The notes beneath the pieces were generated by a model. It made no database searches. It was not told the DNA's origin and worked only from the letters and a program-made list of their open reading frames with translations. The translations under genes were made by a program, and so were the position numbers. From Deltaproteobacteria bacterium (lineage in GTDB: Bacteria; Myxococcota; Kuafuiibacteriia; Kuafuiibacteriales; Kuafuiibacteriaceae), in NCBI GenBank assembly GCA_040218735.1, contig JAVJQW010000019.1:1-64000 (forward strand): a stretch of DNA of 64,000 nucleotides, written 5' to 3'. Below, in pieces: positions 32,828 through 49,450 of this stretch (its first letter is position 1; every line of letters begins with the position of its first letter).

Positions 32828-32847
32828 CTTGTGTTAGTGATCGAGGG

Positions 32848-33717
32848 ATGTGCCGGCTGTTCGGCTTTCGGAGCGTCATCCCGAGCATGGTCCACCGCTC
32901 GCTGATCGACGCGGACAACGCGCTCGGCGTGCAGAGCGAGAACCACCCCGACGGCTGGGGCGTCGCCTACTACATCGACAACGCGCCGCACGTGATGAAG
33001 AGCGTGTCGACGGCGCTGACCGATCAGCTGTTTCAGCGGGTGAGCGGCATCGTGTCGTCGGAGACCGTCGTCGCGCACGTGCGCAAGGCGACGCAGGGTG
33101 ACCTGTCCGTCCTCAACGCGCACCCGTTCCAGTACGGGCGCTGGGTGTTCGCGCACAACGGCGACATCCCGGAGTTCGGCGAGGTGCGCAAGACACTGCT
33201 GAACGAGGTCGCGCCGCGCCTGCGCCGCTTCGTCCTCGGCGACACCGACAGCGAAGTCATCTTCTTCATGTTCCTCTCCGAGCTGCAGCGGCACGGCGCG
33301 CTCGCCAACAACCACGGCACCGACGAGGTCTTCGCCGCGCTCAGCACGACGGTCGAGCGCGTGCGCGAGATCTGCGACACGAAGCAGCGCGGACACACCT
33401 CGCTGCTCACGCTCCTCGCGACGAACGGCGCGACGCTCGCGGCGACGCGCGGCGGTAAGGAGCTGTACTGGTCGTCGTACAAGACGCGCTGCGCGGACCG
33501 CGACACGTGCCCATCGCTATCCGACGAGTGTGAAGCGCCGACGCTCACCGGATTCGTGAACCACCTGATCCTCTCGAGTGAGCCGCTCGGCGGTGAAAAC
33601 GTCTGGCACGAGCTCGACGACGGCGGGCTCATCGGCGTCGACTGGCGGATGCGGTTGGTTCACCGCGGGCTCGACGAGTCGCGCTCCCTCCCGATCGTCC
33701 ACGACGCGGCGAGCTGA
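32848..33717 (+). CDS. Class II glutamine amidotransferase (YafJ/EgtC-like)
   Basis: N-terminal MCRLFG, HPDGWG, AHVRKAT, HPF, FAHNG, GDTDSE. Confidence 0.92.
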   Translation: MCRLFGFRSVIPSMVHRSLIDADNALGVQSENHPDGWGVAYYIDNAPHVMKSVSTALTDQLFQRVSGIVSSETVVAHVRKATQGDLSVLNAHPFQYGRWVFAHNGDIPEFGEVRKTLLNEVAPRLRRFVLGDTDSEVIFFMFLSELQRHGALANNHGTDEVFAALSTTVERVREICDTKQRGHTSLLTLLATNGATLAATRGGKELYWSSYKTRCADRDTCPSLSDECEAPTLTGFVNHLILSSEPLGGENVWHELDDGGLIGVDWRMRLVHRGLDESRSLPIVHDAAS

Positions 33718-33722
33718 ATCGA

Positions 33723-34751
33723 ATGGTCACCATCGCCGTCGACGCCATGGGAGGCGACAACGCCCCCGACGCGATCGTGCGCGGAGCCGCCGAGGCTTCG
33801 CTGGCGATCGACGGCGAGGTGTTGCTCGTCGGCGACGAAGCGAAGATCGCTCCGCTCCTGGAGAACGCGAAACACGATCCGGAGCGCATCCGCATCCACC
33901 ACGCCCCGCAGGCGATACCGATGGACTGCAAACCGCGGGCGGCGCTCGACGCGATGCCGGAGTCGTCGCTGTGCGTGGCGACGAAGCTCGTCGCCGCGGA
34001 GGGTCACGCGGACGCGCTGGTCAGCGCCGGCAACACCGGCGCGGTGATCCTCGCGTGCGCCGACGCGTTCGAGTGCATCCCGGGCGTACGCCGTACGGCG
34101 CTGGCGGCGGTGATCCCGACGGAGCGCCGACGCGGCAAGAAGCAGGACCCCTTCACGTTGCTGCTCGACGCGGGCGCGACGCTGCGGGTGTCGGCGGAGG
34201 ACCTCGTCGGCTTCGCGTTGATGGGCGCGGCGTACGCTTCGATCGTCTCGAAGAACGACCGCCCGCGCGTCGCGCTGCTGTCGAACGGCACCGAGCCGAC
34301 GAAGGGCACGCCGGAGATCGTCGAGGCGCACCAGCTGCTGCTGACGGCGGACGGGATCGACTTCGTCGGCAACCTCGAGGGCATCGACATCCCGCGCGGC
34401 AAAGCCGACGTCATCGTGTGCGACGGCTTCACCGGGAACATCACGCTGAAGATGCTCGAGGGCGTCTCCCAGACCGTGAAGAACCTCGCGCGCTACGCGT
34501 ACCGGCGGAAGGTGTCGTGGAAGCTCGCGATGTGGCTGCTGTCGAGCGGCATCAAGCGCATCAAGGAAGTCACCGACTGGCAGCAGTACGGCGGCGCGCC
34601 GATCCTCGGGTTCGATCGGCTCTGCATCAAGGCGCACGGCCGCAGCGGTCCGCGCGCGATCCGCAACGCGATCAAGGTGGCGGAGCGCTGCGTGAATCAG
34701 GACCTGGCGGGGCGGATCGAGAAGTACGTCGCGTCGGTCGACCGAAGCTGA
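33723..34751 (+). CDS. plsX: Phosphate acyltransferase
   Basis: IAVDAMGGDNAP, VSAGNTGA, CDGFTGNI.LK..EG, YGGAPILG, KAHGRS. Confidence 0.95.
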   Translation: MVTIAVDAMGGDNAPDAIVRGAAEASLAIDGEVLLVGDEAKIAPLLENAKHDPERIRIHHAPQAIPMDCKPRAALDAMPESSLCVATKLVAAEGHADALVSAGNTGAVILACADAFECIPGVRRTALAAVIPTERRRGKKQDPFTLLLDAGATLRVSAEDLVGFALMGAAYASIVSKNDRPRVALLSNGTEPTKGTPEIVEAHQLLLTADGIDFVGNLEGIDIPRGKADVIVCDGFTGNITLKMLEGVSQTVKNLARYAYRRKVSWKLAMWLLSSGIKRIKEVTDWQQYGGAPILGFDRLCIKAHGRSGPRAIRNAIKVAERCVNQDLAGRIEKYVASVDRS

Positions 34752-35162
34752 CTACGCGAGCGCGGTCTTCGCGACCGTGCCTTCGGTCGGTGCATTCGCG
34801 GCGTCGAGTCGGCGGGAGGCCGGACGCAAGATGTAGGACGCGACGGCGACGGACAGCACGACGAGCGGCGCGAGCGAGTCGGCGACGGGATCGCCGGAGG
34901 CGAGGTGCGAGACGAACGCGCCGGTGAGCAGGAATCCGATCCCGGCGTACGCCCACTCCTTGATGCGCGCGAAGCCCGGGACGAGGAGAGCGACCGCAGC
35001 GCCGACCTTCCAGATGCCGAGGAGCGGGAGGATGTAGGCGGGGTAGCCGAGGCGGGCCATGTTCTGCTGCATCTCTTCGCTCCCGCTGAGCTGACCGACA
35101 CCGCCGCCGAGCAGCGCGAGCGCGACCAGGACCGTGAGCACCCAATAGATCTTCTTGTTCAT
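34752..35162 (-). CDS. DoxX-like membrane protein
   Basis: LGYPAY, KEWAYAG, four TM segments. Confidence 0.9.
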   Translation of the reverse strand: MNKKIYWVLTVLVALALLGGGVGQLSGSEEMQQNMARLGYPAYILPLLGIWKVGAAVALLVPGFARIKEWAYAGIGFLLTGAFVSHLASGDPVADSLAPLVVLSVAVASYILRPASRRLDAANAPTEGTVAKTALA

Positions 35163-35237
35163 GGCACCACCCTAAGAATCGACTCATAAGTGGACAAGAC
35201 GTCGACTTCGGGCACCACCTGAACGAAAATCGAGCAG

Positions 35238-36143
35238 ATGATTGCGGATGCGCTGCGGGAGTTCGTCACCATCGTGGAGCAGGGCTCCGTGTCGAAGGCG
35301 GCCCGATCGCTGGAGCTTCCGCGGGCGACGCTCTCCCGCCACCTCGCGGCGATGGAGGACGACCTCGGCGTGACCCTCCTGCACCGGCAGACGCGCCGCC
35401 TCACGCTGACCGCGGCCGGCGAGACGTTGTACCGGCGCGCGCTCAAGCTCGTCGCCGATGCGCAGGCGTTGGAGGTCGCGGTGCGGGAGCTCGACGGGGT
35501 GCCGCGCGGCGTGCTGCGGGTCTCCCTGCCGCCCGCGATCGGAGCCCGCGGCGGTGAGCTGCTGGGGCGCTACCTCGACAAGTACCCTCAGGTGTCGATC
35601 GACGTGGTCTCGACCGCGCGACACGTGGACCTCGTCGGCGAGGGGATCGACGTCGCGCTGCGCGGCGGGCTCGTCCGCGATCCGTCGTTGATGGTGCGGC
35701 AGCTGATGCCATCACGCATTCGCCTCGTGGCGGCGCCCGCGTTGCTGGAGGTGACCGGCCCGATCGAATCGGTGGAGGACCTCGCGCGGCTCCCGTGCGT
35801 GCGGATGTACGAAGGGGGCTGGCGGCCGATCGATCACTACCCGCTCACGGCCGGCGGCGCGGTGCAGGTCGACGGGCGGCTTCGCTGCAACGACGTGGTG
35901 CTCGCGCGTTCGTTTGTGTTGGAGGGGCGCGCGGCGGCGTTGCTCCCGGACGAGTTCACCGTGCACGACCTCGAGCGCGGGGCGATGGTCGAAGTGCTCC
36001 CCGAAGTGATCGGCGCTCGGGGCGCCGTGTCGGTGGTGTGGCCGCAGCAAGACCACCTCGACCCGAAGGTACGTGCGTTCATCGACGAGGCGGTCGCGTA
36101 CTTCGCCGAGTGGAAGTCGGGCGACCTGATGCGTCACCAGTAG
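35238..36143 (+). CDS. LysR family regulator
   Basis: GSVSKAARSL, LLHRQTRRLTLT, DLVGEGIDVALR; divergent from doxX. Confidence 0.93.
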   Translation: MIADALREFVTIVEQGSVSKAARSLELPRATLSRHLAAMEDDLGVTLLHRQTRRLTLTAAGETLYRRALKLVADAQALEVAVRELDGVPRGVLRVSLPPAIGARGGELLGRYLDKYPQVSIDVVSTARHVDLVGEGIDVALRGGLVRDPSLMVRQLMPSRIRLVAAPALLEVTGPIESVEDLARLPCVRMYEGGWRPIDHYPLTAGGAVQVDGRLRCNDVVLARSFVLEGRAAALLPDEFTVHDLERGAMVEVLPEVIGARGAVSVVWPQQDHLDPKVRAFIDEAVAYFAEWKSGDLMRHQ

Positions 36144-36808
36144 AGCTGCCAGACGCCGTCGTCGAGGACGCCGTGGCCCTGGAACGTGACGCGCTCCTCG
36201 CCCGGTTCGAGCGGGCGGTCGGCGGCGATCTGGTGGAGGTGCGCGCCGTCGTGCACGAACAGATCGCCGAGCGCGTAGGGGTGGTAGGTCGCGTCGGCTT
36301 CGGTGGGGCGGTGGTCCTCGCCGTGGAGGATCGGCCAAGTGTAGAGGCCGGCGCCGGCGGCGGGGATCGCGATCGGGACGGTGAAGGAGAAGCGGCGCGA
36401 CGGGTCCGCGTTCGGGGAGACGTTCCAGTCGAGGTGCTCGTGCTGGAGGTCGTAGTGCAACTTGGGTTGCAAGTCACCGAGGCGGTCGTGGTGTTGGAAC
36501 AGGTGGAAGCCGGGCGGCGCGTAGACGTTGGTAATGGCGGCCGGAGCTCCGAGCGCGCCTTCGACGGCGATGACGAGGCGGTCGTAGAGCCAGCCGAGCT
36601 CCCGGTGCAACGCGCGTCGCGCGCGGGTCGCGCGAGTGTAGTACTGGCGGACGCCGTCGGTGGGGATGTCGAGGTAGGCCGCGGCGCCGATCGTGAAGGA
36701 CGGCAGCTCGGGGTGACGCGGGATCCAGTAGCGCTTCAACGCGTCGACGGCGGCGCGCGCGCGGGTGCAGTCGGCGGCGTCGAGGAATCGGTGCGCGGTG
36801 GGCTGCAT
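36134..36808 (-). CDS. Hypothetical protein, possible 2OG-Fe(II) oxygenase fold
   Basis: LHYD...HLHQI...RVTFQGH fits an HxD...H...R pattern. Confidence 0.6.
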   Translation of the reverse strand: MQPTAHRFLDAADCTRARAAVDALKRYWIPRHPELPSFTIGAAAYLDIPTDGVRQYYTRATRARRALHRELGWLYDRLVIAVEGALGAPAAITNVYAPPGFHLFQHHDRLGDLQPKLHYDLQHEHLDWNVSPNADPSRRFSFTVPIAIPAAGAGLYTWPILHGEDHRPTEADATYHPYALGDLFVHDGAHLHQIAADRPLEPGEERVTFQGHGVLDDGVWQLYW

Positions 36809-36864
36809 GAGGAGCGATCTTGTCCGACGCGGCGTTTTCGGTCGAGCCGCGGTACCCTTCGGTG

Positions 36865-37557
36865 ATGGACGATCTGACGCGCGATCGACTCGAAGAGCTC
36901 CTGGACCGGCGAGGCACGTTCTTCGAGGCGCGCTGGCGAGGCGTCGACTTCCTCGTGCTCGACACGCTCGCTTTCGGCGCGGGCGAGAAACGGTGGGACG
37001 AGGAGATCGGCTACCTGCTCGTCGACCTTCCGCGCCCGAACCCGTGTGATCTCCTCCTCGACTCGCGGCGCGAGGCGGACGACGGAGCGGGAGACGATCT
37101 ACATCGTTACTTCACGTGGTCGGCGACGAACGACCAGCTCGTGACGTCGCAGATCTGCGGCGCGCTCCTCGACGTGATGCTGTCGCTGCGCGAGCGCTAC
37201 AAGCGCGTCACCGTCACGGACGACTGGGTGGGCTTCGGGCCGATCGCCCGTGCGCCGTCGGAGTTGGTGGACGACCTCGACCGCGTCGTACAGCTCGCGC
37301 TCGCGTCGCGCGGCGAGGACTTCGACGCCGGCCCGCCCGGATGGGAGACGAAGGGGAGCTTCCCGACCCGGCGCCGATCCGCCGAGGCGCAGTTCGTCGC
37401 ACCGCCGGTGGGGTGGTCCACGGACAGCGCACCGGACGGCCCGAACGCCGAACCGGCGGAGGGCGCCGAGCTCCCGTTCTGTTACTTCTGCGGCGCCGCG
37501 ATGGAGCGCGTCGCACGCGTGTGCCCGGAGTGCGGCGCGGACCTCAGCGACGACTGA
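36865..37557 (+). CDS. Protein with a C-terminal zinc ribbon
   Basis: CYFCG...CPECG at the C-terminus. Confidence 0.75.
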   Translation: MDDLTRDRLEELLDRRGTFFEARWRGVDFLVLDTLAFGAGEKRWDEEIGYLLVDLPRPNPCDLLLDSRREADDGAGDDLHRYFTWSATNDQLVTSQICGALLDVMLSLRERYKRVTVTDDWVGFGPIARAPSELVDDLDRVVQLALASRGEDFDAGPPGWETKGSFPTRRRSAEAQFVAPPVGWSTDSAPDGPNAEPAEGAELPFCYFCGAAMERVARVCPECGADLSDD

Positions 37558-37592
37558 ACACACTCCGCGCCGAGCAGTGGTATCTTCGCGGC

Positions 37593-38618
37593 GTGGGCAA
37601 ACGCGCTTGGGGCTCCGCTGGCGTGGTGTTCGCGCTGCTCGCGACCGCGGCGGCCCGCGCGGAGGAGCCCGGGGCCCCCGAGCTCACCCCGACCGCCGCG
37701 AGCCTCGACGTCCTGATCCCCATCATCACGCACGTCGGCACGTTCGTGGAGTATCGGCGGGTGATGGTTGCGCGGGGTCGGCCGCCCTTGATCCCAATCG
37801 TGACGCCGCACGGGACGCTGGTGCACCCTACCGGTACCGGTACCGGTCCGGGTCCCGACGGCGGCGCCGCGATTGAGGCACGAGGGGTGGGCGCCGCTTC
37901 CGTTTCCGCGTCCGTTTCCGCTTCCGCTTCCGAGTCCGCTTCCGAGTCCGTCACCAGCTTCGGTTCCGGCTCCGCGTCCGCCTCGGAATCCGGCTCTGTC
38001 CCCCCGCCGCGTAGCGCGGATCGCGGAGCTTCGTCGAAGGGCGAGGGTAGCGTCGCCGGCTCCGCCGCGACCGCGGGCGCGAAGGTCGCCGCCCCGACGG
38101 CGCGGCCCCGCTCCGCGCTCTCCCTCGCGCTCCACTACGAGGCCGGCTACTTCGGCCCCGCCGACGTGAACGCCGAGCTCACGGCCCGGGCGGGCGTCGA
38201 GCGTAACTTCGTCCTCTTCGGGGGCCTCGGCCTCGGGCTCGAGGTTCGTCCGCACCCTTGGGTCGGGCTGTCGGCGACGACGAGTTACCTCCTCGCGCCG
38301 CCGGAGACGATCAACCTCGAGGTCCACTATCTGCACGCGTTCGCGGGCACGGTCGCGGCGCGGCTCTACGTCCCCACGGTCGACGCGCTCGACATCGCGA
38401 TGGGCGTCGAGGGCTCGATCCACTGGGCCGGCTACCAGGACACCAGCGCCGTAGGCCCCGGGTTCGTGTGGCGCTTCGGCGTCCAGCTCCTCGACCCGGA
38501 CCTCCCCGCCGTGCTCGCCACGATCTACGTCCGCCGCGCCAAGCTCCGCGACGACGACGGCTTCGAGCTCGACCTCTCCGGGATCGGCGCGATGGCCGAC
38601 TTCTCGTTCGACCTATAA
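37593..38618 (+). CDS. Secreted or outer-membrane protein with an S/A/G hexamer-repeat linker
   Basis: Signal peptide ending AARA-EE; alternating beta-strand C-terminal half ending FSFDL. Confidence 0.65.
   Translation: MGKRAWGSAGVVFALLATAAARAEEPGAPELTPTAASLDVLIPIITHVGTFVEYRRVMVARGRPPLIPIVTPHGTLVHPTGTGTGPGPDGGAAIEARGVGAASVSASVSASASESASESVTSFGSGSASASESGSVPPPRSADRGASSKGEGSVAGSAATAGAKVAAPTARPRSALSLALHYEAGYFGPADVNAELTARAGVERNFVLFGGLGLGLEVRPHPWVGLSATTSYLLAPPETINLEVHYLHAFAGTVAARLYVPTVDALDIAMGVEGSIHWAGYQDTSAVGPGFVWRFGVQLLDPDLPAVLATIYVRRAKLRDDDGFELDLSGIGAMADFSFDL
37828..38000. repeat. Degenerate hexamer tracts (ACCGGT)n and (TCCGNN)n inside a CDS
   Basis: ACCGGTACCGGTACCGGT and TCCGTTTCCGCGTCCGTTTCCGCTTCCGCTTCCGAGTCCGCTTCCGAGTCCG. 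Confidence 0.8.
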
Positions 38619-38867
38619 CGCGTCGGTCGACGCGAGCAGCTCGGGACGGAAGTCCCCACGCACCCGCACCAGCGGGGCGAACCGCGTCTTCCGTCGCACC
38701 CGCACCAGCGTCGCGCTCGGTTTGACGAGCTCCCCGGACAGCCGCACCTCCGAGAACTCGATGACCGTCTTCTTCTTGAAGGCCTCCTGAGGCGCCTCCT
38801 CCTCCGCGAACGCGACGCCGGGGACCGTGAGCATCAGGGTCAGCAACCCCGTGAACCATCTGTTCAT
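38613..38867 (-). CDS. cglF: CglF/GltF-like gliding motility protein
   Basis: Signal peptide followed by KKKTVIEFSEVRLSGELVKP...F..L..VRGDFRPEL..S.D.L, the myxobacterial GltF pattern. Confidence 0.75.
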   Translation of the reverse strand: MNRWFTGLLTLMLTVPGVAFAEEEAPQEAFKKKTVIEFSEVRLSGELVKPSATLVRVRRKTRFAPLVRVRGDFRPELLASTDAL

Positions 38868-38887
38868 GTTCCTTCGGTGCTTCGAAG

Positions 38888-39904
38888 GTGGCGAAGCCTT
38901 ACAGAATGAAGTTGACTACGGCTCCGGTGGCCAAGAAATCGGATGTCATCTGGAACGAGCTCAGCCTCGTTCTGCAGGCGGGCAAGCCCAAGGAGATCGC
39001 CCGCCACCTGCACCTGCTCTCGAAGCAGCAGCTGCACCCGCTCTTCCGCGCCGCCCTCGACGCGCAGATCCTCTGGAACGAAGGCGCGATCGCGCAGGCC
39101 TGCGAGGAGCTCGAGAACGCGCAGAAGACCCGCAAGCTCGGGCCGCACGAGATCCTGATGCTCGGCCTCATCCTCTACGAGAAAGAGGAGTTCGACGAGG
39201 CCGAGAAGCAGCTCGACTTCGCGTTCGAGAAGGGCGTCCTCGACAGTCGCCTCGTCCTCGCGCGCGCCGGGGTCCAGATCGCGAAAGAGAAGTACACCGT
39301 CGCGCGGAAGATCCTCCACACGTCGCTCAAGGCCGAGATGAACCAGTGGCGCGCGTGGCTGCTGCTCGGCGAGGTGGAGATCCTCCGCAAGGATCTCCGC
39401 GCCGCCGCCGACGCTTTCCTCGCCGTCACGCGCCTCGCCCCGAACTTCGAGCCCGGCTGGACCCACGCCGCCGGCGTGCTCGTCGACCTCGGCTACCCCG
39501 AGCGCGCCGCCGAGCTGCTCCGCCGCATCTGCAGCGTGCGTCCGAGCTTCGTCGCCGCGCAGCTCGCCTTCGCGCAGGTGCTCCAGAACCTCGGGCAGTT
39601 CAAAGAGGCCCTCCACTGTCTCCGCACCGTCGGCCGCTACGCGATGGAGCCGACGATGCTCATGGAGATCGCGGAGATGATGTTCAAGCTGCAGGAGTAC
39701 CAGGACTGCGCGAACATCCTGAACCGCGCGCAAGAGCAGGCGCAGCACCTCCCCAAGCTCTGGTTCCTCCGCGGCGAGCTCGCCAACGCCGCCGGACTCG
39801 AAGGTCGCGCCAACGCGATCCAACACTACCGAGAAGCCCTGCTCCGCGACCGCGAGTTCAAACCCGCACGCGAGCGCCTCGACGCCCTCCTCGCCCAGAT
39901 CTGA
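38888..39904 (+). CDS. Tetratricopeptide repeat protein
   Basis: Repeated AWLLLGE, LWFLRGE and AIQHYREAL..D TPR-like helices; the start may be ATG 38906. Confidence 0.85.
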   Translation: MAKPYRMKLTTAPVAKKSDVIWNELSLVLQAGKPKEIARHLHLLSKQQLHPLFRAALDAQILWNEGAIAQACEELENAQKTRKLGPHEILMLGLILYEKEEFDEAEKQLDFAFEKGVLDSRLVLARAGVQIAKEKYTVARKILHTSLKAEMNQWRAWLLLGEVEILRKDLRAAADAFLAVTRLAPNFEPGWTHAAGVLVDLGYPERAAELLRRICSVRPSFVAAQLAFAQVLQNLGQFKEALHCLRTVGRYAMEPTMLMEIAEMMFKLQEYQDCANILNRAQEQAQHLPKLWFLRGELANAAGLEGRANAIQHYREALLRDREFKPARERLDALLAQI

Positions 39905-39978
39905 AGCGGGCCTGACGCAACGCGACGTCGACAATAGGTGTAGCGACCGGCTCGCCGGGCCCGTAGGCTCCGCGCCGC

Positions 39979-41994
39979 ATGGGCCGCCGCCGCAAGTACG
40001 CCAGCGCATCCCCCCCCGCGCCGATCGACCTCAACCCGATCTCCGAGCCCGTCCTCGACTTCCCCGACCGCGACCTCGCGGACATGACGCCCGACGACTA
40101 CGCCCGCCTCGGCTTCATCTGCGGGCTCGAGGTGCACCAGCAGCTCCTCACGCAGCGCAAGCTCTTCTGCCGCTGCCCCGCCGGCGTGCGCACGCGCGAG
40201 GTCGACGCCGAGGTCCTCCGCCACATGCGCCCCACCCTCTCCGAGCTCGGCGAGTACGACGGCTGCGCGCTGATGGAGTTCAAGACGAAGAAGGAGATCC
40301 TGTATCTCCTCGCGCACGGCCTCGTCTGCACCTACGAGATGGACGACACGCCGCCGTTCGAGATCGACCCGCTCGCCGTGAAGCGCGCGCTCGAGGTCTC
40401 GGCGATGTTCGACATGAACCTCGTCTCCGAGCTGCAGGTCATGCGGAAGCAATACCTCGACGGCTCGATCCCCACCGGCTTCCAACGCACCGCGATGGTC
40501 GCGCTCGGCGGACAGATCCCCATGCGCGAGAGTGAGCTCGGTCCGGACCGTGTGCTCCGCATCCGCCAACTCACGCTCGAAGAAGACAGCTGCCGCGAAG
40601 TCCGCGACCACGGCCACAACATCATCTTCCGCACTGACCGCCTCGGCACGCCGCTCATCGAGACCGTCACGGAGCCGGACCTCGTCACGCCCCACGACGT
40701 CGCGGTCGGCGGGCGCCTAATCGCCTCCGTCGCGCGCGCGTCGAACAAGGTACGACGCGGGCCGGGCGCCGCGCGTCAGGACGTGAACGTCTCGATCGCC
40801 GGCAGCCGCCGCGTCGAGATCAAGGGCGTCCCGAACCACCGCATCCTCCCGCGCCTCGTGCACAACGAAGCGTTCCGGCACCTCAACCTGCTGCGCATCC
40901 GCGACCTGATGCACAAACGCGAGCTCGCGGAGAGGGACTTCCAGATCGACGACAGCGAAGACGCGTGGACGTCGAGCCTCGTCGTCGACGCGCGGCGACT
41001 GCTCCGCGGCTCCGCGTTCCTCCCGATCGTGGAGGCGCGCGCGCAGGGCGAGATGGTCTGCGCCGTTCGCATCCCGCGCTGCGCGGGCCTGCTCGCGCAC
41101 CGCACCCAACCCGGGCACGTCTTCCTGCAGGAGCTGTCGGAGCGCGTGCGGGTGATCGCCTGCCTGACGCCGCCGTTCATGATCTCGTCGGACACCCACG
41201 CGGACGCGCTGTCGAGCGTGGTGTGGCAGCAGCTCCGCTCCGCGACCGGCGCGACGCGCGACGACGCGATCGTCGTGGTGTGGGGCCCCGAGGACGACGT
41301 CGACACCGCCGCGCGCGAGATCCTGACCCGCGCCGCCGACGCGACCGTCGGCGTCCCCTCCGAGACACGCCAGGCCCACGGCGACGCCTCGACCGGCTTC
41401 GAGCGCATCCTCCCCGGCCCCGAGCGCATGTACCCGGACACCGACACGCCGCCCCTCCCGATCCCCGACGTGTGGCTCGAGGACAACGCGGCACACATGG
41501 CGCCGCGTCCGTGGGAGCGCGAGGACCGCTACCTCGCGGACGGCGTCACACCGGCGCTCGCAAGGCAGCTTGCATCTTCGGTGCACGCGCCCACCTACGA
41601 AGCGCTCGCGCCGAAGACGAAGGACGCCGCGGTGCGTGTCGCCGCGATCCTCGTCGGGCGGCTGCGGCGGTTGAACACGATCGAACCGGAGCGCGTCGCG
41701 CCGCTGGTTCGTGCGGTGGAGGCGGGGACGCTGCTCCCCGAAGCGCTCGACCTCGCGTTCCTCCGCGTGCGGGACGGCGAGAAGGCCGAGACGGTGCTGC
41801 GTGACTTCGAGGTCGCGCGTGATCCCGACGCGCGCCTGTCGGAGGCCGTGGCGAAGGTCGAAGCCGCGAAGAAGGCCGTCCTCACGAAGGACGTCGAAGC
41901 GCGTTGCCGGTGGGCGATGGGCTTGGTGATGCCGGACCTGATCGGGCGCGTCGCGCGCACGACGGTCGAGGCGCGCGTGCGGGAGGTCCTGTGA
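39979..41994 (+). CDS. gatE: Glu-tRNA(Gln) amidotransferase subunit E (archaeal type)
   Basis: GLEVHQQL..RKLFCRCP, DGSIPTGFQRT, LEEDS, RLGTPLIE, RQDVNVSI, an AspRS-like insertion, RMYPDTD. Confidence 0.92.
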   Translation: MGRRRKYASASPPAPIDLNPISEPVLDFPDRDLADMTPDDYARLGFICGLEVHQQLLTQRKLFCRCPAGVRTREVDAEVLRHMRPTLSELGEYDGCALMEFKTKKEILYLLAHGLVCTYEMDDTPPFEIDPLAVKRALEVSAMFDMNLVSELQVMRKQYLDGSIPTGFQRTAMVALGGQIPMRESELGPDRVLRIRQLTLEEDSCREVRDHGHNIIFRTDRLGTPLIETVTEPDLVTPHDVAVGGRLIASVARASNKVRRGPGAARQDVNVSIAGSRRVEIKGVPNHRILPRLVHNEAFRHLNLLRIRDLMHKRELAERDFQIDDSEDAWTSSLVVDARRLLRGSAFLPIVEARAQGEMVCAVRIPRCAGLLAHRTQPGHVFLQELSERVRVIACLTPPFMISSDTHADALSSVVWQQLRSATGATRDDAIVVVWGPEDDVDTAAREILTRAADATVGVPSETRQAHGDASTGFERILPGPERMYPDTDTPPLPIPDVWLEDNAAHMAPRPWEREDRYLADGVTPALARQLASSVHAPTYEALAPKTKDAAVRVAAILVGRLRRLNTIEPERVAPLVRAVEAGTLLPEALDLAFLRVRDGEKAETVLRDFEVARDPDARLSEAVAKVEAAKKAVLTKDVEARCRWAMGLVMPDLIGRVARTTVEARVREVL

Positions 41995-43385
41995 GCGATC
42001 CGAAAGAAGACTTCAAGGGCTACCGCGATCCGACGCGGAGCGTGATGCAGAAGTTCGGCGTGACTGTCTGGAGCCAGGTCGTCGCGAAGACGACGCGAGG
42101 GACCTTCGAAGGTCTCGTGCTCCCGCGCTCGGAGACGTCGGACGCCGACCACCTCGTGCTGAAGATGTGGACCGGCTACAACATCGGGATCCGCCACGAC
42201 ACGATCGAGTCGCTCGACAAACGCGGGTACAAGAAGGCCGAGTACAAGATCCCGGAGGAGGAGTTCCCGAAGGATCCCGAGAAGCCGCGCGTGATGTTGT
42301 TCGGCACCGGCGGCACGATCGCTTCGCGCCTCGACTACCGCACCGGCGCCGTCATCCCCGCGTTCAGCCCCGGCGAGCTCTACGGCTCGGTCCCCGAGCT
42401 CGCGGACGTCTGCAACCTCGATACGGAGAAGCTGTTCGGCGTCTTCTCGGAGAACATGGGCGCCGAGCAGTACCGCGTGCTGGCGGCGCGATGCGGCGAG
42501 GCGATCGAAGCCGGCTACGACGGCATCGTCATCGGCCATGGCACCGACACGATGCACCACACGGCGGCGGCGCTGACGTACATGGTGCAGGACACGCCCA
42601 TCCCGATCGTGATGGTCGGGAGTCAGCGTTCGTCGGACCGGCCGTCGTCGGACGCCGCGCGCAACCTGATCGCGGCGGCGAACGCGGCGGCGCACGGGAA
42701 GATCGCCGAGGTGATGGTCTGTATGTTCGGGCCGACCTCGGATCAGTACAACCTGCTCCACCGCGGCCCGCGCGTGCGCAAGATGCACAGCTCCTACCGG
42801 AGCACGTTCCGCACGCTCGGTGATCTACCGCTGGCGATGATCGAGGACGGGAAGCTCACGCCGATCAAGAAGGAGTTCCGTCAGCGCGATCCGCTGCGCA
42901 AGGCGAAGGTGACGCCGGTCTTCGAGGAGCGCGTCACGATCCTCTACTACTACCCGAACATGCAGCCCGACGTGATCGATGCGCTGGTCGACTGCGGCTA
43001 CAAGGGCATCGTCATCGCGGGCACCGGCCTCGGCCACGTGAACCGCCTCGTGTACCCCGCGCTCGAACGCGCGCGCGACAAGGGCGTGCAGGTGTACATG
43101 ACGCTGCAGACGCTGTGGGGCTTCGTGCAAATGCACGTCTACGAGACGGGCCGCGAGATCCTGCAGCTCGGCGTCGTCCCGCTCGCGAACATGCTGCCGG
43201 AGGTCGGGTACATCAAACTCGGCTGGGCGCTCGGCCGGCACCCCGACGATCCGGAAGCCGTGCGGGCGCTGATGCAGACCCCGATCGGCGACGACATGAC
43301 GGAGCGCGAGCCCTTCGGCGGCTACCTGGTGTTCCAGGGCGGCGTCCCGGAGATCACGGGGTTCGTGAAGAAGATCCTGTCGTAA
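41991..43385 (+). CDS. gatD: Glu-tRNA(Gln) amidotransferase subunit D (archaeal type)
   Basis: N-terminal extension (GYNIGI), TGGTIASRLDYRTGAV, HGTDTM, GSQRSSDRPSSD, RKMHS, GTGLGH, MLPEV; GTGA overlap with gatE. Confidence 0.93.
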   Translation: MSDPKEDFKGYRDPTRSVMQKFGVTVWSQVVAKTTRGTFEGLVLPRSETSDADHLVLKMWTGYNIGIRHDTIESLDKRGYKKAEYKIPEEEFPKDPEKPRVMLFGTGGTIASRLDYRTGAVIPAFSPGELYGSVPELADVCNLDTEKLFGVFSENMGAEQYRVLAARCGEAIEAGYDGIVIGHGTDTMHHTAAALTYMVQDTPIPIVMVGSQRSSDRPSSDAARNLIAAANAAAHGKIAEVMVCMFGPTSDQYNLLHRGPRVRKMHSSYRSTFRTLGDLPLAMIEDGKLTPIKKEFRQRDPLRKAKVTPVFEERVTILYYYPNMQPDVIDALVDCGYKGIVIAGTGLGHVNRLVYPALERARDKGVQVYMTLQTLWGFVQMHVYETGREILQLGVVPLANMLPEVGYIKLGWALGRHPDDPEAVRALMQTPIGDDMTEREPFGGYLVFQGGVPEITGFVKKILS

Positions 43386-43448
43386 TCTTACACGCCCGCG
43401 TAATCCAACGGAGCACAACGCTGGGATGCGGCGACCGATAAGACCGGT

Positions 43449-44936
43449 ATGACGCGGCAGGTACCATTGGGCAGCCCCGTGCTGTTCCAGAAGCCGGGCG
43501 TCGAGCGCTTCGACGCCGACGGCGACCAGCACGTCTCGACGGACGAGCTCGACCTCGCCGAGAAGGCGGCGCGCGGGGCCCTCTCGGGGCTTCGGCTCGA
43601 GAACGCACTGCGCCAGCTCGACGAGCTGCGCGACAAAGTCGATGCGCAGGGCACCCCGGGCACGCCGCTGCCCGCGGACGCGGTTCCGACACCCGAGATC
43701 GTCGAAGGCGTAGAGCTGCTCGCCGGGCCGCTCGGGATCCTCGTCCCGCTCGAGCTGCACGTACGGCCCGAGGTGGTCCTCGCGACCTCCAACGCACAGC
43801 GAACCTCGGCGCGTCTCGAGCTGCACTTCCCGCTCGAAGATCTCGGGTTGCCGGACGACGACGCGAAGATCCTCCTCGAAGGCAGCGGTGCATGGGGCGC
43901 CGGCCCGAGCACACGCGTCGACGACGACGCATCGGTGAAGCTCACGCTGCACACGCGCGACGACGGAGGAATCGTGGCTTCGCTCGAAGCCGACCGCGTG
44001 CTCATCGCGAGCCTCGGCAAGCTGCAGTTCGTCTACGAGACCGAAGGCGGGACGGACCGCGCCCTCCGCGTGACCCCCGAAGAGGTTCGGCTCGACGACT
44101 CGGCGGGTCACCGCGTGGACCTTCGCGATCGAATCGAGCGATCCCAAAGCCAGCTCGCGAAACTCGAGGATCGCGTCGCGCGGCTGCGCGACCCGGCGAT
44201 CGACACCGACGTGGAGGCCTACTACGTGGAGCTCACCGCGGAGCAACGGACGCTGAGCGGGCGGGTAGCGACGCTCGAGGGCGAGCTCACCCGGGTGAAG
44301 ACCGCGTACGCCGAAGCACAGGGCGCGGCGATCGAACGTCTGGACGCGGGCGACCTCCCGGCGGCGTTGATGTCGCGCGTCGGCGCGGATCTATTGCCGC
44401 CGGCGTGCCTGGATGATCTGAACGTCATCACCGCGGCCGACGCGACGCGCGCGGAGGCGGAGGAGCGTGCGACGCTCTTGAAGCAGATGCTCGACGTGCT
44501 CAGCGCCGCGCCACCCGATCAAACCGAAGAGATGGCGCGCGAGCTGCGGGAGGTCGAGGCGAAGGCGGCGGACGCTGCGGCGACCGCGGCGGCGCGCTGG
44601 GCGCAGGTGAAGGGGGCGATCACCGACCTCGCGGGCACGCCCGAGGTCGACGACTTCCTCGTGCGCATCGAAGGCTACGGGCGGGATCGTCCGCTCGCGA
44701 CGCTCCGGTCGGAGCGGAGCGCGATCGAGTCGGACCACGCCAACGTTTCTCGCGAGCTGCGTGAGGTCGAAGCAGACCTGGGGAATCGCGACGTTACGAT
44801 CGAAGCCATCGCGCAGCGAACCGCCGACAAGTGCGCGGAGGTTTCGGATCGCATCGTCGCGCTCCAAGCGGAGCTCGACAGCGGCGCGACCCGAATCGTG
44901 ACACGCCGGTTCGACGCCGACGGCCAGCCGGTCTGA
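43449..44936 (+). CDS. Hypothetical coiled-coil protein
   Basis: EF-hand-like DADGDQHVSTDE; heptad-rich C-terminal half. Confidence 0.65.
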   Translation: MTRQVPLGSPVLFQKPGVERFDADGDQHVSTDELDLAEKAARGALSGLRLENALRQLDELRDKVDAQGTPGTPLPADAVPTPEIVEGVELLAGPLGILVPLELHVRPEVVLATSNAQRTSARLELHFPLEDLGLPDDDAKILLEGSGAWGAGPSTRVDDDASVKLTLHTRDDGGIVASLEADRVLIASLGKLQFVYETEGGTDRALRVTPEEVRLDDSAGHRVDLRDRIERSQSQLAKLEDRVARLRDPAIDTDVEAYYVELTAEQRTLSGRVATLEGELTRVKTAYAEAQGAAIERLDAGDLPAALMSRVGADLLPPACLDDLNVITAADATRAEAEERATLLKQMLDVLSAAPPDQTEEMARELREVEAKAADAAATAAARWAQVKGAITDLAGTPEVDDFLVRIEGYGRDRPLATLRSERSAIESDHANVSRELREVEADLGNRDVTIEAIAQRTADKCAEVSDRIVALQAELDSGATRIVTRRFDADGQPV

Positions 44937-44942
44937 GCTCGG

Positions 44943-46670
44943 TCAGAGTGTCTCGAGGAACGTGACGAGATCGTCGCGCTGAGCTGCGTCGAGCCCTTCG
45001 ACGTCGCCGTGCTCGCGGCCGCCGCACGTCCAGTCGAAGCGTTGGTGCAGCGTCGCCGCGCAGCCGTCGTGCATGTAGGGCGCGCGAGAGCGTACGCCGC
45101 GGAGGCTCGGCACTTGGAACGCCGCGCCGGTGCCGACGTGGACCGTCTCGTTGTTCGTGAGCGCGTCGCCGCTGTGGCAGTCGCCGCATCGTGCCTGCTG
45201 GAAGACGGCGCGACCGCGATCGATCGCGGCGTGGTCGGTCGGGCGTCGAGTCTCGAGCGGCGCGAGCGTTTCGAGCCATCGTTCGAGGAGCTCCGTGTCG
45301 ATGCCCTCCACGGGACCGCTGCCCATGCGGCCCACCATCACGACCGACATGATGTGGCCGAGGTCTTCCATGTCGCCGTCCCAGTGGAACGGTTCGGTGC
45401 CCGCGAGGCCGCGTACGGTCTGCGTGCGTCGCAGGCCGATGTCGGCGAAGTTCCAAGTGTGTCCGTCGTCCCGGCCTTCGGGGTGGCAGTGCGCACAGGC
45501 GACGCCTCCGCTCTGCGCGCGATGGAACATGTCGTGGCCCGTGTCGCGAACGTTCGCGCCGGCGAGGTCGACGTGTCGGTCGCCGATCGAGAGCTGCGGC
45601 GGCTCGCGAGAGAACGCGATCAGCTTGCCGGTCTTCCCCATCTCGACGGCGACCGCCTGACCGCCTTCGCGACCGGTCTCGGGGTCGATCATGAACGGGC
45701 GTTGCAACACGCTGCCGCGGGCGAACTCGAACTCGATCAGCGTCGACGTGCTTCGGTGAGCCCCGGGTGCGGCGAGGAACGCCCAGCCCTCTTGGGGTCG
45801 CAGGACGAAGTCGACGGCCAGCCCGTCGGTCGAGCCGGACGTCACGTACGTGAGGTCGGGCGCGAACTGCGTGATGTTCGTCGTGACCAGCGGCGCGAAC
45901 CCGCCGCCCCCGTACGGGGAGCCGCGCTGCGGCCCTGGAGCGGGCTCAGTTTCGACGACGGCGGTCGTGGCCATCTGGTGGAGCACGAGGACGCCGCCTT
46001 CGGGTGCGGCGCGCATGCGCCAGGCGGTGCTCGCCTCGAAGTCCCGGTGGAACAAGGTGCGCACCGGCCGAACGCGCCCGACGGGTGCGTCGCTCTCCAG
46101 CCGTAGCAGCTCGGCGCGGCGGAAGGTCGACACCCACGTGCGTCCGCCTTCGACGACGATGTCGCGCAGGTCGTCGGCGACGTAGACCGAAGTCGTCGGA
46201 CGTTCGCCGCGCGGATCGATGCGGAACATCTCGCCGCCGACGCAGACCACGAGCACGAGCACGCGGTCGGGATCGAATGCGATCCCGCGCGGCGCCGGGC
46301 AGACGTCGAGGCGTTCGACGAGGCGCTCTTCGATCGGATCGATCGCGGCGACCGCGCCCGCCGAACGCAAGACCACGAAGAGCGAGCCGTCGGGGAGGAA
46401 GAGCGCGCGACCGGGGTCGTCGCCTTGCGTCAGCGCGATCGTGCGCGGCGGACGCGTTTCACCGAGCGAGACGATGTGGACGACGTCGCGATCGCTGTCC
46501 GCGACGGCGACGAGCCCGCGTGCTTCGTCGAGCGCCATCGTGCCGCCGGAGATCGGTTTGGGGATCGGATCCGCCTTCACACGCTGGCCGAAGGACCCTG
46601 TGCCCAGGTCGTCCGAGCACGCCCACGGGGCGCAGCACATCGCCGCGGTGATGATCGAAAGTCGTCGCAC
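44943..46670 (-). CDS. Beta-propeller plus diheme cytochrome c (peroxidase/MauG-like) lipoprotein
   Basis: CAHCH, CGDCH, PFHWDG, VPSLRGV...APYMHDG; GGAGG RBS before GTG 46670. Confidence 0.85.
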   Translation of the reverse strand: MRRLSIITAAMCCAPWACSDDLGTGSFGQRVKADPIPKPISGGTMALDEARGLVAVADSDRDVVHIVSLGETRPPRTIALTQGDDPGRALFLPDGSLFVVLRSAGAVAAIDPIEERLVERLDVCPAPRGIAFDPDRVLVLVVCVGGEMFRIDPRGERPTTSVYVADDLRDIVVEGGRTWVSTFRRAELLRLESDAPVGRVRPVRTLFHRDFEASTAWRMRAAPEGGVLVLHQMATTAVVETEPAPGPQRGSPYGGGGFAPLVTTNITQFAPDLTYVTSGSTDGLAVDFVLRPQEGWAFLAAPGAHRSTSTLIEFEFARGSVLQRPFMIDPETGREGGQAVAVEMGKTGKLIAFSREPPQLSIGDRHVDLAGANVRDTGHDMFHRAQSGGVACAHCHPEGRDDGHTWNFADIGLRRTQTVRGLAGTEPFHWDGDMEDLGHIMSVVMVGRMGSGPVEGIDTELLERWLETLAPLETRRPTDHAAIDRGRAVFQQARCGDCHSGDALTNNETVHVGTGAAFQVPSLRGVRSRAPYMHDGCAATLHQRFDWTCGGREHGDVEGLDAAQRDDLVTFLETL

Positions 46671-46767
46671 ACATACCTCCCCGCGCTTCGGCCCGATCGG
46701 GTTCGACCCGACCGGCACCGGCACGCAGGAGATACGTTGCCGCCTCGCCCGAAAACTTCCGTTCTTT

Positions 46768-48099
46768 CTAGCGGACCTCGACGACGCGCTGCGCGGTGCC
46801 GACGTGCACGCCGTCGTCGACCGTCACCTCGACCACGTAGGTTCCGGCTTCGCGCGGGCGCCAGCTCACCGCGCGGCGGGCGGTCTCGGGGCCGACGCGT
46901 TCGCCGTCGACGCGGAAGCGGTGCCCGACGATCGCCGAGTCGAGGTCGTGCGCGACGGTGAGTTGGATCTCCTCTTCGGCGCGAACGACGTCCGGCACCT
47001 CGAGGGCGACGTCGACCGCCTGCGGGGCGGGCGCTTCGATCGCACAACCGTGCATCGCGAACTCGTGCTCGTACTGCACGGCGAGGTTCGCGTGGTCCGG
47101 CGTGAACGCGACACTCACGGGGAGCGCCGGGCCCGGCACGTGCGCGCGCTCCGACATCGGGCGCGGTGGCAACGCGATGATCTCCTCACCGCGGGCCTCG
47201 ACGATGAGCTCCCCGTCGGCGCGCAGGTACGCGAACATCGAACCGTCGGGCGACCACGCGACGGGCGTGACCTGCACGAGCGGCGCATAGATGTTCTCGT
47301 TGACTTGCACGACGAGTCCGCCGCGCTGCGGCTCGAGCTCGGAGAAGTCGTTCGAGTCGAGGAGGAAGATTCGACCTTCGTCGGTGGTGACGGCGAGGCG
47401 CGTCGCGTCGGGGGACAGCACCACGTTGACGAGCAGCTCGTTGTTCGAAACGAGCTGCGGGGAGCGCCGGGACGCGCCGGTCTCGACGTCGACGACGACG
47501 ATCTCCTGCGGCGCGGTGATGAACACCGAGGTGTCGGAGACGACGTCGAGGTGGGCGCTGTACAGGCCTTCCTCGGCGAAGAGCCGCGTGACCTCGCCGC
47601 GCTCGTTCCAGCGTTCGACGACGGTCTCGCCGTAGCCGCGGAGCGTGATGACGTAGCGGCCGTCCGGCGTGAGCGCGACGTCGCGCACGCCGTCTTCGCC
47701 GAGCGTCGCGATCGTGTCGCCGGTGGCGAAGTCGAAGAGCGTGGGGATCTCGTTCGCCACGCGCACGGCGCGCGTGCGGTCGCGGTCGACGCTCACGATC
47801 TCGGCACCGTCCACGATGACGACCTGCCCGTCGTGCGCGCGGAGGAACGCGGTCGTACCGAAGTAGATCGCGCGGCCGCGCGCGACGAGGCCTTGGCTAT
47901 CGACGAACCACGGCGTGCGCGGGTCGAGGCCGTAGGTGCCGAGCACCTGGTTCGCCCACTGCTCTGTGCCGCCGCACTCCTCGAGGCGCGACGTCGTGGT
48001 CTCGACCTCGGGCGGCGGCGTCTTCTCGGGACCCAGCTCCATGGTCGCGGGCTCCGCGCAGGCGACGGTGAGGAGCAGGGCGAGCAGACGGCGATCCAT
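46768..48099 (-). CDS. WD40-like lipoprotein with a C-terminal Ig-like domain
   Basis: Lipobox TVA-C; repeats LTPDGRY, LSPDATRL, WSPDGSM; GTYVVEVTVDDG. Confidence 0.75.
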   Translation of the reverse strand: MDRRLLALLLTVACAEPATMELGPEKTPPPEVETTTSRLEECGGTEQWANQVLGTYGLDPRTPWFVDSQGLVARGRAIYFGTTAFLRAHDGQVVIVDGAEIVSVDRDRTRAVRVANEIPTLFDFATGDTIATLGEDGVRDVALTPDGRYVITLRGYGETVVERWNERGEVTRLFAEEGLYSAHLDVVSDTSVFITAPQEIVVVDVETGASRRSPQLVSNNELLVNVVLSPDATRLAVTTDEGRIFLLDSNDFSELEPQRGGLVVQVNENIYAPLVQVTPVAWSPDGSMFAYLRADGELIVEARGEEIIALPPRPMSERAHVPGPALPVSVAFTPDHANLAVQYEHEFAMHGCAIEAPAPQAVDVALEVPDVVRAEEEIQLTVAHDLDSAIVGHRFRVDGERVGPETARRAVSWRPREAGTYVVEVTVDDGVHVGTAQRVVEVR

Positions 48100-48185
48100 G
48101 CTGACGATGGTCGCCGAATCCGTCCCTCGCGACAAACCGAACGTTCCGTATTCGATTGTATCGCTGGGCCGTTCAATTTGCGACG

Positions 48186-49007
48186 ATGACGGCTGTGGAG
48201 ATCCAACGCATCGCGGCGTTCGCGGACGCGACCCACGCCGGCAACCCCGCGGGCGTGTGCCTGCTCGACGATTGGTCGCCCTGGCCCGACGACGCCGTGC
48301 TGCTGCGGATCGCGGCGGCGGTCGGGCTCTCCGAGACGGCGTTCCTGCGCGGGCGGGCTCTGCGTTGGTTCACGCCGGCGGTCGAGATGCCGCTGTGCGG
48401 CCACGCGACCCTCGCGACGGCGTTCGTCCTCGGCGAAGCGCACGTCGCGTTCGAGACCCGCGAGGCGGGCGTGCTCACGGCGGACATCGACGGCGCCGAC
48501 GTCACGATGGACTTCCCGGCCCACCCGCCCACGCCTCGTGCGATCGACGACGCGATGATCGCCGCGCTCGGCGCGCGACCGGACGCGGCGTTCGACGGCT
48601 TCAAAGGCCTCGTACGCTTCGGCAGCGAAGCGGAGGTCGCCGCACTCGAGCCCGATTTCGAACGCATGGCGGCGCTCGACGTGAACGGCGTCATCGCCAC
48701 GGCGCCGGGGCGCGACGTGGACTTCGTCTCCCGCTTCTTCGCCCCGAAGCTCGGCGTTCCCGAGGACCCGGTGACGGGATCGGCGCACACCGTGCTCGCG
48801 CCGTACTGGGCCCAGGCGCTCGGCCGCGACGACGTGGTCGGCCGGCAGATCCCGCGCGACCCACCGCCCGAGGGCGGCCTCGCGTGGGAGGACGTGGCGC
48901 CGATGAGCGCGCGCCCGGGCGGCGTGGTCCGGTGCACGGTGCGGGGGGAGCGCGTCGTGATGCGCGGGAGCGCGCGGAGGACCGGGAGAGGGCGCGTGGT
49001 GGGCTGA
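48186..49007 (+). CDS. PhzF family isomerase with an 18-aa insertion
   Basis: GNPAGV, LSETAF, RWFTP..E.PLCGHATLA, SRFFAP..G..EDPVTGSAH. Confidence 0.93.
   Translation: MTAVEIQRIAAFADATHAGNPAGVCLLDDWSPWPDDAVLLRIAAAVGLSETAFLRGRALRWFTPAVEMPLCGHATLATAFVLGEAHVAFETREAGVLTADIDGADVTMDFPAHPPTPRAIDDAMIAALGARPDAAFDGFKGLVRFGSEAEVAALEPDFERMAALDVNGVIATAPGRDVDFVSRFFAPKLGVPEDPVTGSAHTVLAPYWAQALGRDDVVGRQIPRDPPPEGGLAWEDVAPMSARPGGVVRCTVRGERVVMRGSARRTGRGRVVG
48848..48904. mobile_element. 54-bp palindromic in-frame insertion in the phzF-family gene
   Basis: TCCCGCGCGA..CCGCCC-GA-GGGCGG..TCGCGTGGGA; GAT at 48848 and 48902; it splits the usual RQxSxRGG motif. Confidence 0.65.
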
Positions 49008-49021
49008 GCGCGGGGGCGGGC

Positions 49022-49290
49022 GGGCTCGTTGGGGTCGACAGGAGGCGGGGAGGTTGGGAGGGCCATGCGCCGAGACCGAATCCGAATCCGAGTCCGAATC
49101 CGATTCCGATTCCACGCCCGCGTTTCGTGCGGAGCACGGCGCGCCGGAATCGGGACCGGGACCGGAACCGGGACCGGGACCGGGTGGGGGGGCCGAAACC
49201 AACGGCGAGCATCGTGAACGACCACGAGGCGTCGGACTCGGCGCATGGCCCTCCCGGCCTCCCCGCCTCCTGTTGATCCCCAACGAGCCC
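49022..49290. mobile_element. MITE-like element with ~58-bp imperfect terminal inverted repeats
   Basis: GGGCTCGTTGGGGTCGACAGGAGGCGGGGAGGTTGGGAGGGCCATGCGCCGAGACCGA (49022-49079) pairs with 49232-49290. Confidence 0.8.
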
Positions 49291-49344
49291 CGCGCCGGAT
49301 TCGGGACCGGAACCGGGACCGGGACCGGGACCGGGTGGGGGGCC
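49076..49344. repeat. Hexamer tracts (CCGAAT)n and (GGGACC)n; a ~54-bp block is duplicated
   Basis: CGCGCCGGA..(CGGGAC)n..GGGTGGGGGGCC at 49140-49194 and 49291-49344. Confidence 0.85.
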
Positions 49345-49450
49345 TGACAGATCGGCGCACCGCGGAGCCTCACCCCGACAATTCGGCAGCCCTCGACCCG
49401 GACCACGCCAGCGCGGCGCGTGGCCTGGCCCGTGCAATCGGCTCCCCACG

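Follow-up and report, generated by a model that had tools for sequence, protein, structure and literature searches.

A gatE-gatD operon of a Myxococcota genome as a member of a large bacterial GatDE variant

Organization of the gatE-gatD operon

The stretch of 64,000 nucleotides analyzed here (hereafter, the window) comprises the initial 64 kb of contig C41 (JAVJQW010000019.1) in the assembly GCA_040218735.1 of a Deltaproteobacteria bacterium. We found that it carries genes for both subunits of the tRNA(Gln) amidotransferase GatDE, gatE and gatD, adjacent and on the same strand. The features of the pair, in coordinates of the window, are the following:

39979..41994, + strand: gatE, 671 aa, predicted kinase/transamidase subunit of GatDE (TIGR00134, phmmer, fold, conserved columns)
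41035..41310, + strand: putative AspRS-like (GAD) insertion domain of GatE, residues 353-444 (sub-cut-off Pfam GAD match, partial Foldseek matches)
41677..41988, + strand: putative C-terminal helical tail of GatE (YqeY-like), residues about 567-670 (weak GatB_Yqey match, alignment, model)
41982..41986, + strand: Shine-Dalgarno sequence GGAGG of gatD, within the gatE 3' end (read directly from the sequence)
41991..43385, + strand: gatD, 464 aa, predicted glutaminase subunit composed of GatD_N and a type I asparaginase fold (TIGR02153, Pfam, phmmer)

The interval is filled by two open reading frames (ORFs), 39979-41994 and 41904-43385, both on the + strand. The gatD start that agrees with the homologues is the GTG at 41991, and the tblastn alignment begins at residue 1. 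This GTG overlaps the TGA of gatE (41992-41994) in the tetranucleotide GTGA and is preceded, five bases upstream, by GGAGG; thus, gatE and gatD are translationally coupled. Between the window and a sister species (G001), the ratio of nonsynonymous to synonymous divergence (dN/dS) is 0.120/0.456 = 0.26 for gatE and 0.049/0.359 = 0.14 for gatD. The gene pair is a genuine, intact operon under purifying selection. We found no tRNA genes within positions 30000-50000, and a scan around the operon returned no promoter-like sites and four terminator-like sites versus 2.8 expected.

Identity of the GatE and GatD proteins

The GatE protein scores 376.8 bits with the NCBI equivalog model TIGR00134 (gatE_arch), above its cut-off of 319.55, and 433.9 bits with NF003107, slightly below the cut-off of 456. 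The protein does not fall within GatB, for which the highest-scoring model reaches 115.7 bits (cut-off 338). The same is seen in phmmer comparisons, where the archaeal GatE chains 1zq1_C and 2d6f_C align colinearly over residues 40-658 with 269.9 and 269 bits, respectively, while GatB chains reach at most 66.7 bits. The motif DGSIPTGFQRT is present (TGFQRT from residue 166). An alignment of 63 bacterial and archaeal GatE rows has 65 columns with conservation of at least 95%, and the window protein matches the consensus in every one of them; a 30-row GatE alignment contains 56 invariant columns.

As for the domain composition of GatE, the Pfam GatB_N match is spread across residues 47-500 and covers only 276 model positions, which indicates a large insertion. 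Within it, at residues 353-444, the GAD domain PF02938 is detected with 20.4 bits (E 6e-4), below the cut-off of 23.4, and a precomputed PF02938 match is present in close homologues. The AlphaFold model, built from an alignment of 30 homologues (mean confidence, pLDDT, 91.3; predicted template-modelling score, pTM, 0.88), finds its best fold matches in the Protein Data Bank (PDB) in 1zq1_C and 2d6f (template-modelling, TM, score 0.80-0.83 on the target, Foldseek), followed by GatB chains (TM 0.70-0.79, again on the target). Weak, partial matches to bacterial AspRS (1c0a_A, E 2.2e-3) were obtained as well and fit an AspRS-like insertion. The presence of such an insertion is thus supported, weakly by Pfam and better by the predicted fold. 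The tail of the protein yields a weak GatB_Yqey match, below cut-off (12.4 bits, E 0.15), aligns colinearly with its archaeal counterpart in the phmmer comparisons and is all-helical in the model, with pLDDT of 85-94. The predicted protein therefore shows the architecture of GatE, i.e., a cradle domain, an AspRS-like insertion and a helical, YqeY-like tail. GatB of the GatCAB complex (3IP4, 3KFU) has the cradle and tail folds in common with GatE, and both use ammonia from a partner glutaminase, but GatB lacks the AspRS-like insertion and its partner is the amidase GatA with GatC rather than the asparaginase-type GatD.

The GatD protein scores 472.1 bits with TIGR02153 (cut-off 324) and 466.5 bits with NF003217 (cut-off 310), and comprises the Pfam domains GatD_N (PF18195), Asparaginase (PF00710) and Asparaginase_C (PF17763). 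In phmmer it matches 1zq1_A with 369.1 and 2d6f_A with 367.7 bits; no plain asparaginase of the PDB exceeds 134 bits. Its motifs GTGGTIAS (residue 105), HGTDTM (183) and VRKMH (262) align to 1zq1_A, and SDRPSSD is found at residue 215. We take the Thr of GTGGTIAS, the Thr-Asp of HGTDTM and the Lys of VRKMH to be the asparaginase-type catalytic residues. Across 81 bacterial rows, 178 GatD columns are at least 97% conserved. GatD also passes the asparaginase subfamily model TIGR00519 (348.3 bits versus 260.5), because it shares the asparaginase fold. A stand-alone type I L-asparaginase (AnsA, about 330 aa) was considered and rejected, since the protein includes a GatD_N domain, scores better with the GatD models and is encoded in coupling with the gatE gene ahead of it.

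Judged from these profile, alignment and fold comparisons, the two proteins are genuine members of the GatE and GatD families and neither GatB nor AnsA. An initial annotation, made from the nucleotide sequence alone, had described a coupled gatE-gatD pair with these GatE, SDRPSSD and asparaginase motifs, an AspRS-like insertion absent from GatB and the codon style of the neighboring bacterial genes, and had named ordinary GatB and L-asparaginase as the outcome to be checked against; this description holds. The archaeal GatDE enzymes of Pyrococcus abyssi (1ZQ1) and of Methanothermobacter thermautotrophicus in complex with tRNA(Gln) (2D6F) consist of the same subunits, with the same domain order and motifs. 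The window protein differs from them in that its GatE is just 30-34% identical, its host is a bacterium and its genes form a coupled gatE-gatD operon.

Occurrence of GatDE among bacteria

We scanned species genomes, one per species, with the GatE query and found that at least 586 confirmed stretches encode GatE relatives. The best 80 of these (identity 41-63%) are all titled as bacteria and represent ten or more phyla, including Gemmatimonadota, Acidobacteriota, Planctomycetota, Myxococcota, Ignavibacteriota, Bacteroidota, Chlorobiota, Calditrichota, Aminicenantes, KSB1, Marinimicrobia and others. The gatE-gatD order on one strand is retained in about 67 of the 80 fetched loci, and when the ORFs of these loci were clustered, every other family was confined to six loci or fewer. 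The protein database contains thousands of relatives, and NCBI or JGI annotation already calls many of them GatE, among them one of Paraliomyxa miuraensis. It also contains a 98% identical GatE from a metagenome-assembled genome (MAG) of a "Deltaproteobacteria bacterium".

Seven of the MAGs in this set are titled "uncultured Hyphomicrobiales" (L063, L064, L068, L070, L071, L087 and L088), and their GatE falls within the Kapabacteria/Ignavibacteria group; that of L064 is near-identical to the Kapaibacterium row L073 (branch lengths 0.006 and 0.036). Judged by this placement, the taxon labels of these seven records look wrong.

Within Myxococcota, we detected GatE in at least 19 of 201 genomes, a lower bound because one genome without a GatE match (G040) contains an incomplete gatD where a contig ends. 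The gene is frequent in families f3 (12/18), f18 (2/2) and f21 (3/4). In the family of the window, GatE is confined among 20 genomes to its own genus (G000 and G001).

Reviews of 2021 and 2022 present GatDE as confined to archaea and build on this restriction in scenarios of the last universal common ancestor. The classical view cited in the initial annotation is still current, and we found no published description or characterization of a bacterial GatDE in the library of papers searched, which lacks most subscription journals. The scattered bacterial occurrence that the annotation also mentioned turns out to be one large clade in many phyla. The locus is a further member of this large bacterial GatDE variant, which is annotated by pipelines and not discussed in the literature searched.

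Phylogeny and origin of the bacterial GatDE

In a FastTree phylogeny of 98 GatE rows, computed for the nearest relatives, the window and G001 belong to a starred set of seven rows together with Planctomycetota and "delta proteobacterium" MAGs. This set is nested in an Acidobacteriota/Gemmatimonadota clade, apart from the clade of family f3, and the GatD tree agrees on the nearest relatives. A constraint that groups the ten Myxococcota rows makes the tree 320 log-likelihood units worse (approximately unbiased test, p 4e-70). The Myxococcota GatE copies are, by this test, polyphyletic; the copy of the genus therefore came from other bacteria and not directly from archaea.

Archaeal rows were sought among 1.84 billion cluster representatives, which gave 546 matches at E <=1e-30. 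The matches below about 325 bits are 31-37% identical to the window GatE, and those of them that bear names are archaeal (Thermoprotei, Ignisphaera, Parvarchaeota, Heimdallarchaeota, Hodarchaeales, Odinarchaeota and Thorarchaeota). We then rooted a tree of 66 rows on three bacterial GatB sequences (IQ-TREE, LG+G4, short search, with branch support from the Shimodaira-Hasegawa-like approximate likelihood ratio test, SH-aLRT). One clade (SH-aLRT 99) holds all 24 named bacterial rows together with eight unnamed ones, assigned to the bacterial group by their place in an earlier, larger tree; none of the seven named archaeal rows lies inside it. Its sister is a GatE cluster named Heimdallarchaeota (SH-aLRT 98), and both are placed within an Asgard-like group (SH-aLRT 99), itself among other archaeal rows.

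Sequence motifs agree with this arrangement: CTYEMD-x-TPPF and RKQYLDGS are shared by bacterial and Asgard sequences, and the remaining archaeal rows read CLVE-x-DEEPPH and RKIVIDGS instead. The Asgard GatE are the closest archaeal relatives and share C-T/S-Y-E-x-D-x-T-P-P-F and RKQYLDGS/RKNYLDGS, which are missing in the other archaeal rows; they differ from the bacterial proteins in lying outside the bacterial clade and in having Glu where that clade has D123. The position of the bacterial clade next to Asgard sequences argues for a transfer from archaea to bacteria followed by spread among bacteria. The whole clade would thus descend from an Asgard-like archaeal GatDE through one old transfer, succeeded by repeated transfers of the two-gene unit among bacteria, in one of which the operon reached the ancestor of the myxobacterial genus from another bacterium. 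This deep placement is provisional because the search was short and a single type of outgroup was used. Of the old horizontal acquisition suggested in the initial annotation, the transfer itself stands, but the immediate donor was another bacterium, and the Asgard-like origin lies much deeper.

tRNA charging in the host and in other GatE-bearing genomes

The initial annotation had proposed looking in the genome for glnS, gatCAB, the GluRS type and the first base pair of tRNA(Gln). Both glnS and gatCAB are present in the host, and the archaeal A1-U72 pair is absent. The host GlnRS (723.2 bits) is encoded on the same contig as gatE-gatD, a true gatB (521 bits) is located elsewhere in the genome, on contig C8, and GatA, GatC, AsnRS, nine AsnB-family matches and one full-length GluRS are encoded as well. 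Both tRNA(Gln) genes begin with U1-A72, and so does tRNA(Asn). According to the review PMC9499178, archaeal GatDE recognizes tRNA(Gln) by its A1:U72 pair and D-loop; with U1-A72 in the host tRNA(Gln), recognition must therefore differ from that of archaeal GatDE.

The host GluRS matches the Thermus thermophilus GluRS 1j09 with 499 bits and has Arg at the position of Arg358, a residue that PMC2978374 and PMC3927822 give as a marker of discriminating GluRS (D-GluRS). We rejected it as a discrimination marker here, since Arg is also found in 30 of 30 other GluRS from 28 genomes, among them genomes without a GlnRS or GatB match. Two full-length GluRS genes are present in each of three GatE-bearing genomes (G241, G250 and G220), and in G250 one of them adjoins glnS.

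We tabulated GlnRS, GatB, AsnRS, AsnA and AsnB in 69 GatE-bearing genomes, 68 of them distinct (G202 and G092 give the same places); 50 were derived from 50 of the best 80 loci, and their completeness is not reported. AsnB was found in 52 of the 69 and AsnA in six. Neither GlnRS nor GatB was found in five (G109, G227, G235, G236 and G241), which is an archaeal-like layout. If these absences are real, GatDE would be the sole Gln-tRNA route there, which would support a Glu-tRNA(Gln) role for the clade. The glnS gene adjoins gatE in a Planctomycetota MAG (L026:3665-8031) and a "delta proteobacterium" MAG (L040:1-7860), and lies divergently beside gatE in a Myxococcota genome (G053:C53:16835-20340).

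A separate observation concerns Myxococcota family f10 (G028, G037, G044, G051, G058 and G063), in which neither GatB nor GatE was found in any of the six genomes and AsnB homologues were found in all five searched. By gene content, this family appears to manage with no tRNA-dependent amidotransferase at all.

Predicted function and alternative readings

By homology to the solved archaeal enzyme, GatD would hydrolyze glutamine (or asparagine) and release ammonia, and GatE would phosphorylate the side-chain carboxyl of Glu on tRNA(Gln) and then amidate it to Gln-tRNA(Gln). The enzyme looks active, as suggested by its conserved residues and by selection. We consider amidation of Glu-tRNA(Gln) its most likely activity, with fair though by no means full confidence, and as an accessory or corrective route: in a cell with GlnRS, AsnRS, GatCAB and AsnB homologues GatDE is an extra route, which would run beside GlnRS and GatCAB, probably convert Glu-tRNA(Gln) mischarged by GluRS and have to read a bacterial-type tRNA with U1-A72.

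Several observations weigh against this assignment. The GlnRS of the host makes the canonical role superfluous, and its GatA, GatB, GatC and AsnRS add to the redundancy, so the sole Gln-tRNA route without GlnRS that characterizes archaeal GatDE is not what the host has. The archaeal-style formation of Gln-tRNA that the initial annotation took to be implied is not borne out by this gene set, nor by the U1-A72 pair of both tRNA(Gln) genes. The same redundancy extends to the GatE-bearing genomes at large: of the 69, 57 have a GlnRS match and 62 an AsnRS match. GatB is found in 27 and not in 42, a deficit more in line with a GatCAB-like function than with one specific for Gln alone. Moreover, the bacterial clade has fixed changes of its own, which distinguish it from archaeal GatDE: 31 of 32 bacterial-clade GatE rows have D123, adjoining the conserved DxxPP motif, at a position that is Glu in 30 of 31 archaeal rows, and C205 and T219 likewise lie near the active-site motif. 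The replacement of archaeal Glu by D123 is, on alignment grounds, a candidate specificity change. Finally, no RNA runs containing the locus are listed.

A similar surplus is described for Bdellovibrio, Deinococcus and Thermus, which, according to PMC4206432, possess GlnRS, AsnRS and a surplus GatCAB with an established role in tRNA-bound asparagine synthesis. The logic of redundancy is the same, but the surplus enzyme there is GatCAB, whereas here GatDE comes atop GatCAB and AsnB homologues.

By the first alternative, bacterial GatDE would be an Asp-tRNA(Asn) or dual Glu/Asp amidotransferase that replaces GatCAB, e.g., in forming asparagine on tRNA, and in the host would duplicate it. In Myxococcota, GatB occurs in 164 of the 182 GatE-negative genomes versus 7 of the 19 GatE-positive ones (one of the 171 GatB-positive genomes among the 201, G195, is marked unpublished), and in family f3 GatE is present in 12 of 18 genomes and GatB in two; most of the anticorrelation comes from this family, however, and hence may reflect one event. 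Six of the 69 genomes (G031, G047, G065, G105, G207 and G230) have GlnRS and AsnRS with no GatB, AsnA or AsnB match, which favors an asparagine-forming role, yet absences in MAGs may result from incompleteness, lineages may import asparagine, and AsnB or AsnA is encoded in the majority of the GatE-positive genomes that have no GatB match. An asnA gene (415.9 bits) positioned divergently beside gatE in family f3 (G073:C540:6-2555, locus L132) and the U1-A72 start of the host tRNA(Asn) also speak for such a role. On the other side, archaeal GatDE is described as Gln-specific in reviews, and an archaeal-type non-discriminating AspRS scored above cut-off in none of the five genomes searched, each of which has one bacterial-type AspRS. 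Taken with both kinds of evidence, this reading seems unlikely. Tentative and likewise on the doubtful side is the related proposal that the clade switched from reading A1-U72 to reading U1-A72 and thereby gained GatCAB-like breadth, acting on both Glu-tRNA(Gln) and Asp-tRNA(Asn).

A repurposed amidotransferase, raised already in the initial annotation, is the second alternative. The pair would then apply its glutaminase and kinase chemistry to a non-canonical substrate, or act under stress alone, e.g., when GlnRS is inhibited. Its redundancy with GlnRS, AsnRS, GatCAB and nine AsnB-family matches, its patchy and transfer-prone distribution and the bacterial-specific substitutions beside the DxxPP motif are in keeping with such a change. 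Nevertheless, GatE keeps all residues conserved between archaea and bacteria, the tRNA-binding tail and the insertion domains, no conserved neighbor indicates another pathway, and the occasional linkage with glnS points to tRNA(Gln); we therefore regard repurposing as quite improbable.

Genomic context and integrity of the assembly

The last alternative, a misassembled or mis-binned archaeal fragment or a gene pair acquired directly and very recently from an archaeon, has nothing to recommend it beyond the textbook expectation that GatDE is archaeal, and is hardly credible given independent contigs that bridge the flanks and gene ends, the long bacterial contig with glnS and bacterial genes on both sides, a codon composition equal to that of the neighbors, the conserved upstream gene in G001 and nearest relatives that are bacterial (54-63% identity, versus 31-37% to archaeal GatE). 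The contig reaches at least base 322,359, where glnS also sits, and the bacterial genes of the window include plsX, a LysR regulator, a tetratricopeptide repeat (TPR) gene and a di-haem cytochrome. The host genome, of 11.6 Mb in 70 contigs and about 70% G+C, is 96.5% complete and 4.65% contaminated, belongs to Myxococcota and contains a full-length match to the bacterial small subunit rRNA model. The G+C content at third codon positions (GC3) is 0.935 in gatE and 0.933 in gatD versus 0.86-0.94 in six neighbors.

For the assembly check we used Logan contigs from four runs of four other studies. A contig of run X3 (record 18; 10,884 nt) spans 37831-45500 unbroken, with 99 differences and one gap, and pieces of run X2 bridge 38842-40076, 40768-42333 and 43133-44607. 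Chimerism, named in the initial annotation as a possible flaw, is excluded. The strain of run X3 has one additional C at 39910, within the 74 nt that separate gatE from the TPR gene.

The upstream gene provides context only and is not part of the enzyme:

38888..39904, + strand: TPR-repeat gene (Pfam TPR families)

The same gene is found upstream of gatE in G001, with 86% amino acid identity, and was not found in any other fetched gatE-gatD locus. Downstream of gatD, an ORF of 495 aa (43449-44936) has no Pfam or NCBIfam match and was not found adjoining gatD in the sister species; two ORFs upstream, within 36134-37557, likewise have no Pfam or NCBIfam match. A low-complexity GCTTCC/GTTTCC repeat at 37894-37975 shows a depth of about 800 in run X10, compared to about 5 elsewhere. 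It was considered as a mobile element or tRNA and rejected, the depth being a mapping artefact of simple sequence from unrelated organisms.

Implications for the GatDE family

Purifying selection keeps GatDE in cells that possess GlnRS and AsnRS and often have no GatCAB. Its roles in bacteria may include quality control of mischarged tRNA, tRNA-dependent synthesis of asparagine or a back-up route. If the enzyme did acquire GatCAB-like breadth, lineages such as family f3 could discard GatCAB, and GatDE would be the sole asparagine route in a few genera and the sole Gln-tRNA route in some genomes of the FCB group that show no GlnRS or GatB. An enzyme of this type working with bacterial-type tRNA identity elements bears on the co-evolution of amidotransferases and their tRNAs.

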